64,000 nucleotides of DNA from Antedon mediterranea (taxonomy: Eukaryota; Animalia; Echinodermata), in assembly GCF_964355755.1 (NCBI RefSeq), contig NC_092670.1, positions 50,001 through 114,000 on the forward strand. Reading direction: 5' to 3'. The notes beneath the pieces are model-generated. The model saw only the letters and a program-made list of their open reading frames with translations. It was not told the DNA's origin and made no database searches. The position numbers were made by a program, and so were the translations under genes. Position 1 is the first letter of the stretch, and every line of letters starts with the position of its first letter. Shown in pieces: positions 50,601-57,113 of this stretch.

Positions 50601-53600
50601 GCATTTACACTCCCTGACATGTTTATGTCTAGAGCATAATTATGTTTGCCTACAGATTTACTATACAGTATGTGAAATCAAAGTATAATTTGGTGGGGTG
50701 TTTTTTTGTTGTTTTTTTTCCAGATTTTTAGGAGATTTTTTGGAGCTGAAATTTGGTGGATTTTTTCCAAATGATGGTATGTTGCACATATTTTGCACTA
50801 ATTTGTGATACATTTTAGTATAAAGGGATAGGCAGTTTTTGAAATATCACATATTTTAGATTCTAATTTTTACAAATACTGTATAAAAAATGTAAGCACC
50901 ATTGAGTGTTTTAATATGATGTTTATTTTGACAGTGTAGTTACATTAGTATTTAAGTAACAAACTCATAAATGCTGTATATCTAAATGATCTATAGTATT
51001 TAATTCACAAACTGATCAATATAAATATCTTATTTTGTAGTTCCAATACTTTCCCAAGAAAGTTGTGCCACTCTTGAAATATCTCTAATTAAAATTTGTC
51101 ACAAGCGTAGAAAGGTGAGTTGTTTCATAAAACCAAAAAGACAGGTAACTAAGTATCCTATTACTATACAAAGCTTTAAACTTTATTGTCTAACATCATA
51201 CATACTTTAAATTTAATATATTATTTATATTATTAAATAATAATAGTAATTTGATAATCAGTGAATGAGTTTTTTCTGTTTCTGCAGGATACTTCACCGT
51301 ATGAACCCATACAAGTAGGAAGATGCCGTGTACCAATTGACCCAGCTGACCTTTCCACTGAGTTGCATTCCACAATATCCATAAACAGCCAGCTTTTGGA
51401 CTCCACCAATGGCCACACTCCTAACTCATATGTGCTACATTTTAAAGTCCATTTCCAAATTTTGACGACAGAAAAACTATGCAATTATGTTTCTGAAGAG
51501 TGTTCTCTGGGTAATTACATTAGTTTAGTATAACAACAATTATTAACTGTACTGTATAATTGTTGTTGAAACTAAGCTATATAAGATATCAAATATTTAT
51601 TGTTCCATCATAAAATATGTTGGAAATTAATTTTACAAATGGCATACAAATACAAAAATACATATAAACAATACAAATGTAAATATAAAAAGAAAACATG
51701 TACTTACACTAAATAGGTGAACTGGATACGTTCATTAATGCTAAACCACCATTGACAACTTTCAGTTTTACTTTTGTAGATGAAACACCAAACAAACGTA
51801 GACGTCCCTCACGTTCACAAGACACAATGGAAAACATAACATATACCTCAGAGCTAGCCGTTCTTGATAAGTATGGTCGATGTCAACTAACTCCAGCAAA
51901 GTATGAACTTGTCTTCCAAGAAACCAAAGTTAAAGGAACCAAAAATGCATCATGGGAAACAATTATGGAAGGCAAAGTATGAAATAATTTATTATAATTT
52001 CATGTTTGTTTATGAACATTTGTAGTGGGTATGTGTAAGCTTGATAGAGGATTTGTAAACACAAAGGTTCTGAAATATAGTTTTAGTATGACTTTCCAGG
52101 ACTTTCTATGCGGTGATTTATTCTAGATATAATGGTCATTTGGCTCAACGTATTGGAAATATCTAATCTGTGCAAACTCCACAGCCATTTACAAAGTTCT
52201 GAAAAACATTCTTATTAAGACTAGCAAGTTGTGGATGAGAGCAAAATATTCTTGGAAAAAATTAGTTTAAATACAAATTTAATGTTATGATCTAGTTTTT
52301 ACAAATACTTTCTGTTTCATCATCATCATCTTCCGTTACGCTATTCGTCTTGGGTAGACATTACGTACGCTAATCGTTTCCATGACTCTCTTTCGGTGGT
52401 CTGATGGTCTGTCATTAATTTTGCGATCGATGTATTTGCTTTTTTGAGTTCTTTATTTATGTTTCCTATCTGTTTATTCACTAAAATATTTGATTCTAAT
52501 AATGTCTTTATACACAGAATGTTCAACCTTTTGAGCTGATCAACAAAGGCCCTGTTCTTAAATTCCATACTGTTTGGCACCGGGAACAAAATGGAGTTTT
52601 AAACGGCTCTACAAACATACCAAATGGTTTAAACCATTATTCATCAGTTGAAGATGATGAAGAAGATATAACAGGTAATGCCAGAAAACAAATTAACAAA
52701 GCATACTATCCTACATACTACTGCATTAGATCTATGCTTATCACCACTATTTTGCCAGTCAAAATTCCCTATAGTTGAAGTATCCAGAATTTCTGTAGTT
52801 TTAAACTTAGGCATTTTTATTCAATAAATATTCAAATATGTGTATATTAATATGACTATTATTACTATTTAAAGCAATAAAAAATAAGGAGGCAGTAGTA
52901 GAGAAACTTGGTAAAGATCTCAAAATGGTTTCTGAGAAAAGAAAACATCGAGTATTTTACCAATTCCTGTATAACAATAATACAAAACAACAAACAGAAG
53001 CTAGAGAGAATATGCATTGTCCATGGTGTTCACTCAATTGTATGCAGCTGTATGGCCTGCTTAAACATCTTACTCTCTGTCACAGTAGATTTAACTTTAC
53101 GTATATTGTAAGTATACACTATTGTTTGTTTTTTAATCAATTAATGAAAATTAATACATTATTGAAATAAATTGAATAATTATTTATATATGGTAAATCG
53201 ATCATTTGTAATTTTGTATTTTTTTTATAGCCTTGTGAATCAAACACAAACATAAATGTAACATTAAATGAGCATTTTGTACTTTTCTTATAGCCATGTG
53301 AATCAAACACACGCATAAATGTAACATTAAATGAGCATTTTGTACTTTTCTTATAGCCATGTGAATCAAACACACGCATAGATGTAACATTAAATGAGCA
53401 TTTTGTATTTTTCTTATAGCCATGTGAATCAAACACACGCATAGATGTAACATTAAATGAGCATTTTGTACTTTTCTTATAGCCATGTGAATCAAACACA
53501 CGCATAGATGTAACATTAAATGAGCATTTTGTACTTTTCTTATAGCCATGTGAATCAAACACGCGCATAAATGTAACATTAAATGAGCATTTTGTACTTT

Positions 53601-56600: not shown

Positions 56601-57113
56601 AGATGTAACATTAAATGAGCATTTTGTACTTTTCTTATAGCCATGTGAATCAAACACACGCATAGATGTAACATTAAATGAGCATTTTGTATTTTTCTTA
56701 TAGCCATATGAATCAAACACACGCATAGATGTAACATTAAATGAGCATTTTGTACTTTTCTTATAGCCATGTGAATCAAACACACGCATAGATGTAACAT
56801 TAAATGAGCATTTTGTACTTTTCTTATAGCCATGTGAATCAAACACACGCATAGATGTAACATTAAATGAGCATTTTGTATTTTTCTTATAGCCATATGA
56901 ATCAAACACACGCATAGATGTAACATTAAATGAGCATTTTGTACTTTTCTTATAGCCATGTGAATCAAACACACGCATAGATGTAACATTAAATGAGCAT
57001 TTTGATGGGTCATATGCCGGTAATCCTCAGAACCTTACTTCACATGCTGGATATGCATTCAGTCGTAATGGACCATGCCGTAGAACACCGGTCACTCAAA
57101 TACTAGTTATGAA
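44682..57113 (+). CDS. SUZ12: Polycomb protein SUZ12 (spliced; 11 exons visible, VEFS-box exons lie beyond the window)
   Basis: Exons: 44682-44781, 45376-45422, 46173-46237, 46339-46407, 50724-50776, 51041-51114, 51288-51510, 51780-51976, 52518-52674, 52875-53107, 56956-57113. Motifs [54 protein letters not shown], zinc finger [55 protein letters not shown]. Confidence 0.95.
45593..46080. repeat. Tandem repeat (~105-bp and shorter variant units, ~5 copies) in SUZ12 intron 2
   Basis: Recurrent AACCTTATGAATTGGGTGGAACAACTTGGTACTCTTATGGTTAGTA. Confidence 0.9.
46406..50492 (+). repeat. 135-bp tandem array (~30 copies) starting at the SUZ12 exon-4 splice donor
   Basis: Unit AA|GTAAGTGCATTCTGAATTAATAATGCTTGATAAATAAG...GATTAAGTAAGTAAGTCTCTATAACCATTAGCTATAATAAATACTTGCTTGAT. 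Confidence 0.96.
52318..52430 (-). mobile_element. Short 3' remnant of an RTE-like LINE in a SUZ12 intron
   Basis: Minus strand encodes ..[13 protein letters not shown].. followed by a (TGA)n tail, resembling RTE-clade 3' ends. Confidence 0.45.
53211..57004 (+). repeat. 63-bp tandem array (~60 copies) of the SUZ12 exon-11 splice acceptor plus first 48 coding nt
   Basis: Unit GTACTTTTCTTATAG|CCATGTGAATCAAACACACGCATAGATGTAACATTAAATGAGCATTTT. The last copy runs into unique coding sequence GATGGGTCATATGCCGGTAATCCTCAG. Confidence 0.96.

Follow-up and report, generated by a model that had tools for sequence, protein, structure and literature searches.

The stretch analysed here, hereafter the window, comprises 64,000 nucleotides of the crinoid Antedon mediterranea (RefSeq assembly GCF_964355755.1, contig NC_092670.1, positions 50,001 to 114,000 of the forward strand), in which coding exon 11 of a SUZ12 gene lies between 60 tandem copies of its splice acceptor and at least 76 tandem copies of its splice donor. 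Tandem repeats that span exon boundaries, termed 'mirage' minisatellites, are a known kind of repeat; what is new is a very large, double-sided case in a crinoid. We hold it quite probable that the acceptor array is such a boundary-spanning minisatellite, tolerated as a by-product of a repeat-prone genome and probably not a device, and the arrays are most likely without a function of their own.

Acceptor and donor arrays of SUZ12 exon 11

The translation of exon 11 (56956-57111) is 100% identical to the NCBI protein 'polycomb protein suz12-like [Antedon mediterranea]', which has 641 residues, and the next matches after it are starfish and hemichordate SUZ12 proteins with 71-81% identity. Residues 1-459 of the NCBI protein map exactly to 11 exons at 44682-57114, residues 460-641 being encoded beyond the window. 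Pfam assigns two domains to this protein, Zn_SUZ12 (PF23320, residues 353-420, E 3.4e-29) and the VEFS box (PF09733, residues 476-605, E 1.7e-48), the VEFS part lying beyond the window; judged by these two domain matches, the gene is SUZ12, a subunit of Polycomb repressive complex 2 (PRC2). Coding exon 10 (52874-53107, forward strand) encodes residues 329-406 with the C2H2 part of Zn_SUZ12 (PF23320, E 1.4e-25) and ends in phase 0 at the donor ATT/GTAAGT (53107/53108). The unique 5' part of intron 10 (53108-53210, forward strand), which is at single-copy DNA depth and is common to a relative described below (organism B), precedes the acceptor array. Exon 11 itself (56956-57113, forward strand, 158 nt, residues 407-459) is defined by both the protein map and RNA.

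Tandem Repeats Finder reports the acceptor array at 53211-57004 on the forward strand with a period of 63, 60.1 copies and 96% matches. Parsing anchored on a conserved 10-mer resolves it into 60 head-to-tail units (53211-56998), each composed of 20 nt of intron end (ATTTTGTACTTTTCTTATAG; a pyrimidine tract plus TAG) followed by 43 nt matching the start of exon 11. Units 1-59 are decoys, and unit 60 (56936-56998) is continuous with exon 11. All 60 matches of the exon-derived 43-mer in the window fall inside the array, with 0 on the other strand. The unit is 63 bp long in 58 of 60 cases and 67 bp in unit 9 (53715-53781) and unit 43 (55861-55927), both on the forward strand: in unit 9, a 4-bp insertion placed after CCATGT creates an early TGA and TAAAG replaces TATAG at the acceptor, and unit 43, lying 34 units further, carries both of these changes. 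By acceptor type, 58 units have TAG and 2 have AAG. A preliminary description, made from the letters alone, had reported a 63-bp acceptor array, and the 60 parsed units bear this out; its statement that the unit is exactly 21 codons long holds for 58 units and fails for the two of 67 bp.

Divergence is distributed unevenly along the array. Unit 1, which reads TNIN, stands furthest from the consensus (6 differences, the mean being 1.3), whereas unit 60 is the consensus and reads TRID; the word ATTTTG occurs at 53211 and again at 56999. These bounds and this contrast between the first and last copies are as originally described. Near-identical interior units together with a diverged edge unit form the pattern of concerted evolution, and no higher-order periodicity is present in this array at offsets 1-39. 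Variation per base reaches 2.4% at exon-derived positions compared with 1.5% at intron-derived positions, and position 43 of the unit is polymorphic (T in 23 of 60 units); since the exon-derived positions are at least as variable as the intron-derived ones, the 'coding' parts of the decoys are unconstrained. The further proposal that selection acts on the last copy is harder to uphold: identity to the consensus is no proof of it, being shared by 18 of the 60 units, while the contrast between the two edges, together with the function of the last copy, remains suggestive.

Every decoy acceptor (59 of 59) leads to an in-frame stop within 3-24 codons, and only unit 60 continues into the exon. From 53 decoys the stop falls at codon 21 and is the TAG of the following acceptor. 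Translation from units 8 and 42 passes an AAG variant and stops 4 codons later (KPCT-stop), from units 9 and 43 it stops after three codons (PCT-stop) owing to the insertion, and from units 38 and 48 it stops at codon 14 through a GAG>TAG change. The built-in stops claimed earlier, including the delay caused by the AAG variants, are thus found throughout. Their regularity follows arithmetically from a phase-0 TAG acceptor combined with a unit length divisible by 3, and is no evidence of design. The duplicated 43 nt encode the last 14 residues of Zn_SUZ12, so that each decoy product, as read from the sequence, would be truncated after that domain and before the VEFS box, in keeping with the proposed truncation of SUZ12 just after the zinc finger.

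On the other side of exon 11, a second array starts at 57056 on the forward strand and runs off the window end at 64000; it comprises at least 76 units, of which 50 measure 92 bp, 25 measure 91 bp and 1 is cut. Each unit joins the terminal 58 nt of exon 11 to 33-34 nt of intron starting with GTAAAT, such that only 57 nt of the exon (56999-57055) lie outside both arrays. AA/GTAA is kept in 75 of 75 complete donor units, and an in-frame TAA directly follows the exon. Position 51 of the unit reads T, as in copy 1, in 25 of 76 units and G in 51. A higher-order repeat of 33 units is also present in this array: at that offset, 31 of 42 pairs of units are identical. A 51-nt mini-exon within each 92-bp unit (17 residues, in-frame and stop-free, from ...TTCAG to GTAAAT) was considered and rejected as a working state, because the intervening intron would measure only 40-41 nt and no RNA joints occur in a stretch of three units. 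A third SUZ12 array (46406-50492, forward strand, 135 bp x 30) opens 2 nt ahead of the coding exon 4 donor (GTAAGT at 46407/46408), and several GTAAGT words are present in each of its units.

Transcripts, relatives and the origin of the arrays

The true donor of exon 11 is GAA/GTAAAT at 57113/57114, as established by a contig of run X5 that leaves the genome at 57113 and continues as the next exon with KRQRKAPTLN, corresponding to residues 459-468. X5, a separate sample and study from the Antedon mediterranea DNA runs X1 and X4, is not marked as RNA in its record but is taken here as cDNA on the basis of four GT..AG joints and the absence of intron cover. These joints (51509>51779, 51976>52518, 52672>52873 and 53107>53294) are found in a 1341-letter contig, the last of them splicing exon 10 to a unit-type acceptor. 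Normally spliced SUZ12 mRNA is thereby shown to exist. The preliminary description had allowed that a different acceptor or an unseen exon might supply the segment following exon 10; this fails against the RNA, which joins 53107 to an acceptor of the unit type.

The X5 joint falls on unit 2 rather than on the diverged unit 1, no joint to 53231 being listed, and the junction contig extends for its full 30 letters through polymorphic unit positions with no second junction contig beside it. The sole donor junction contig reads T at 57107, the letter of copy 1, which gives the Val present in the protein, even though two thirds of the units (51 of 76) are G-type. No joints inside the arrays occur in RNA contigs over a stretch with two acceptor and three donor units. 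The unique middle of exon 11 (56985-57064) is covered by no contig in either X5 or the DNA run X4, which is a technical hole and uninformative. These contig data fit the use of the exon-proximal copies and argue against even use of all copies. The NCBI protein model uses the last acceptor copy, that of unit 60, and it is likely that the cell uses only the two copies touching exon 11.

Two further organisms place the arrays in time. In organism B (X6), a 1322-letter contig of uniform depth 160 matches 52836-53279, a segment comprising exon 10, the intron after it, unit 1 and the following ATTTTG, and no longer fits the array past 53279. A record of equal length and depth covers 56936-57135, where it differs at three letters, all of them in the unique or donor part of the exon. 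Ahead of 56936, the unaligned end of this record is the B counterpart of 53181-53210; past 57135, the record enters unique intron that does not resemble the next repeat unit. The record coordinates agree, 53211 and 56936 both falling at record position 533. A single unit, with no array on either side of exon 11, is therefore the state of organism B. Organism C (X10) departs from the donor unit at the same place on the right and has the same three differences, and likewise has no donor-side array. B is closely related to the organism of the window (A), with 46 differences in 788 aligned bases upstream and 3 in 200 over exon 11, and as a close relative without arrays it implies that both exon 11 arrays arose after the split of A and B.

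The single unit of B also indicates the ancestral state. It equals unit 60 and the array consensus, with no difference over 56936-57004, from which it follows that the six changes of unit 1 are derived. It is already flanked by both ATTTTG words, a six-letter match where chance would be expected to give a fraction of a base, which points to slippage or microhomology-mediated duplication as the starting event. The microhomology origin advanced at the outset thus gains backing from a relative, the duplication step itself being reconstructed. At the joint of the donor array, comparison with the B intron yields a weak match of about three shared letters (CAT). Later growth is attributed to unequal exchange on account of the 33-unit repeat of the donor array and the identical 67-bp units lying 34 apart in the acceptor array. 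Taken as a whole, the original interpretation was largely right but incomplete, lacking the insertions, the true donor, the donor array, the third array and the precedent of mirage repeats.

Explanations for the repeated splice sites

Mirage minisatellites have been described in amphioxus, in Adh3, troponin C, the globins BflGb6 and BflGb9, and PGBD5 (PMC3087553, PMC3902484), where both 5' and 3' boundaries are affected, splicing is left undisturbed, and the units evolve in concert with diverged edges; length polymorphism between haplotypes is also recorded there. The SUZ12 arrays resemble them as boundary-spanning tandem duplications that reiterate AG or GT signals and whose edge units escape homogenisation. 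They differ in their crinoid host, in copy number (60 and at least 76 copies, compared with 3-6 for BflGb6), and in that SUZ12 exon 11 is hit on both sides, with 57 unique bases left. Human donor-side minisatellites provide a second precedent, comprising F7 IVS7 (37 bp x 5-9), 6-16 (25 pseudo-sites), CBS IVS13, LMNB2 and PDGF; they mostly use the most upstream donor, and F7 uses only that one (PMC1557585). As in the F7 type outlined there, the first monomer of the 92-bp and 135-bp SUZ12 arrays spans the exon-intron boundary and identical donors follow the real one, and the T-type donor junction fits the most-upstream rule of F7. The 63-bp array, by contrast, is the acceptor-side mirror image of these human cases, and copy number is 3-10 times higher here.

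The rules of donor choice among identical copies were worked out on human F7 with its 5-9 copies (PMC1557585). No tested rule for the choice among identical tandem acceptors, and no papers on such arrays in echinoderms or crinoids, were found in the literature searched. The locus constitutes a natural experiment in splice-site choice on an unusual scale: an essential exon of 158 nt is enclosed by 60 near-identical acceptors on one side and no fewer than 76 near-identical donors on the other, and a one-copy relative serves as a built-in control. It adds echinoderms to the cephalochordates and the few human genes known for 'mirage' repeats, and warns annotators that exon edges in such genomes may be multiplied many times; knowledge of SUZ12 itself and of the origin of minisatellites is unchanged by the finding.

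A sequence of events consistent with these data can be proposed. The array likely started with a slip between the ATTTTG words, which stand 63 bases from each other, and unequal exchange likely enlarged it afterwards. The last acceptor and the first donor copy would be chosen through exon definition, as the sole pair enclosing the complete 158-nt exon, which is of ordinary size, and only this pair would give an open frame. Units 2-60 have no ancestral intron upstream of their tract, so the branch point would lie in the exon-derived part of the preceding unit, the best candidate being GTAAC about 32 nt before the next TAG, with the sole intervening AG about 10 nt after it. With its own branch-point candidate and pyrimidine tract, each unit would in principle be a competent decoy. 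Use of a decoy would bring in a stop ahead of the exon junctions that follow, with nonsense-mediated decay as the expected outcome.

Several points weigh against this account. Exon definition, branch points and decay are taken from general splicing knowledge rather than from crinoid data, and unequal exchange is read from patterns only. The RNA evidence comes from one run, whose contigs, assembled with k=31, extend 30 letters past a joint, so that the acceptor or donor copy is not identified from the junction contigs, and 24 donor units besides copy 1 are also T-type. Decoy transcripts may be lost both to decay and to the assembler threshold, which leaves room for rare or moderate decoy use. 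The right end of the donor array lies beyond the window, and its 76 units are a lower bound.

The strongest competing explanation is leaky splicing, in which a sizeable share of the pre-mRNA goes to decoys and is destroyed by nonsense-mediated decay, the arrays being mildly harmful and lowering SUZ12 output; it differs from a tolerated by-product only in how cleanly the sites are chosen. The decoys offer grounds for it: the acceptor tracts of 58 of 59 are near-identical to the real one, the T run of unit 1 is even longer, and the donor motif is intact in every complete donor unit. In human 6-16 and CBS, one or two pseudo-donors are spliced in addition to the genuine site (PMC1557585). The transcripts nevertheless speak for clean choice, given that the single acceptor junction contig runs its full length through polymorphic positions, that no joint to unit 1 is listed, and that the donor junction is of T type only while most units are G-type, with the reservation that contigs may miss minor forms. 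We therefore regard leaky splicing as unlikely.

A more ambitious combination, in which crinoids are a second mirage hot spot after amphioxus, the SUZ12 copies act as a copy-number-dependent brake on PRC2 through unproductive splicing, and exon 11 is picked among roughly 4,500 acceptor-donor pairings by exon definition alone, is improbable when its parts are required jointly. No more credit can be given to the narrower suggestion of a regulatory device, namely that selection keeps the arrays as a splice-site sink that tunes PRC2 dosage through unproductive splicing. SUZ12 is a dosage-sensitive chromatin regulator, and the premature stop reached from every decoy would suit such a device. Conservation among relatives, however, is lacking, the arrays being absent from organisms B and C; the units drift freely; and further boundary-spanning arrays occur in unrelated genes of the window, at SRP68 and at the stop codon of an M16 peptidase-like gene. 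The array RNA, too, is less structured than its shuffles (z = +2.58). Concealment of the decoys by RNA structure is rejected on the same result, as four units fold more weakly than shuffles and 200 of 200 shuffles are at least as stable.

The placement of the arrays at junctions also fits chance. With the arrays collapsed, the gene measures about 5 kb and has 21 junctions, and among 200,000 random segments per length, 26% of those of 63 bp, 37% of those of 92 bp and 49% of those of 135 bp include a junction. Among the five SUZ12 arrays, three do so, where about 2 are expected; a splice-coupled mechanism that places arrays at junctions was accordingly rejected, there being no excess over chance. 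Because random overlap is this frequent, no special mechanism is needed; most simply, minisatellites would arise at a high rate in compact genes, and the survivors would be those that leave one intact exon-adjacent copy.

The depth of the DNA runs bears on whether the arrays are real. Long minisatellites are error-prone in assemblies, and X1 and X4, the best DNA runs, may derive from the assembly's own sample. Single-copy flanks have a depth of 12-13 in X1 and of about 295-312 in X4, and their contigs end at the array edge. Summed contig depth on the 63-bp units reaches 128-293 in X1 and 11,469-21,680 in X4, which is 10-23 and 37-70 times the flank depth, respectively, and on the 92-bp units in X4 it reaches 11,000-148,000; these sums are not copy numbers, and agree roughly with tens of copies or more. 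In X5, a 93-letter contig crosses a unit-to-unit joint of the 63-bp array and several more cross joints of the 92-bp array. An assembly artefact is thus unlikely, the presence of the arrays being supported and their exact copy counts approximate, and that the assembler inflated or invented them is the least credible explanation of all, with array contigs at tens to hundreds of times single-copy depth in both DNA runs and independent X5 contigs spanning unit joints of both arrays.

Other repeats and genes of the window

The window is rich in minisatellites, with 45 rows in the repeat listing, and contains four arrays that span splice junctions and one that spans a stop codon. Outside SUZ12, a 73-bp x 8.3 array (15184-15787, forward strand) is built from the last 51 nt of an SRP68 exon and its GTAAGT donor. 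Among its later copies (n=7), the donor reads ATAAGT in 5 and keeps GT in 2, so that its decoy donors are mostly disabled, unlike those of the SUZ12 arrays. The stop-codon case is a 38-bp x 4.9 array (39280-39466, forward strand) that repeats the final 27 coding bases and the TAG stop together with 11 nt of the 3' untranslated region of a gene with a Peptidase_M16 match, presumably one resembling cytochrome b-c1 complex subunit 2; the first copy terminates translation and the extra copies lie in the 3' untranslated region.

A 58-bp x 77 array (1657-6122, forward strand) has 97% matches and a strong G-over-C skew, and no adjoining gene was identified for it. A 106-bp unit forms two arrays in opposite orientation (19378-23146 and 26694-29640, with 35.5 and 27.7 copies), and the core between them (24239-26113) has its own inverted 15-bp arrays, a layout that resembles a foldback-type element. 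Inverted arrays of a 16-bp unit at 30296-30460 and 32135-32296, 1.7 kb apart and of higher G+C (38-42%), possibly mark another element with terminal inverted repeats built from repeats. Between the M16-like gene and SUZ12 lie a gene on the reverse strand (40103-41941) with FKBP_C and weak EF-hand matches, and a forward-strand open frame of 468 residues (42243-43649) containing a reverse transcriptase domain (RVT_1, E 2.5e-38).

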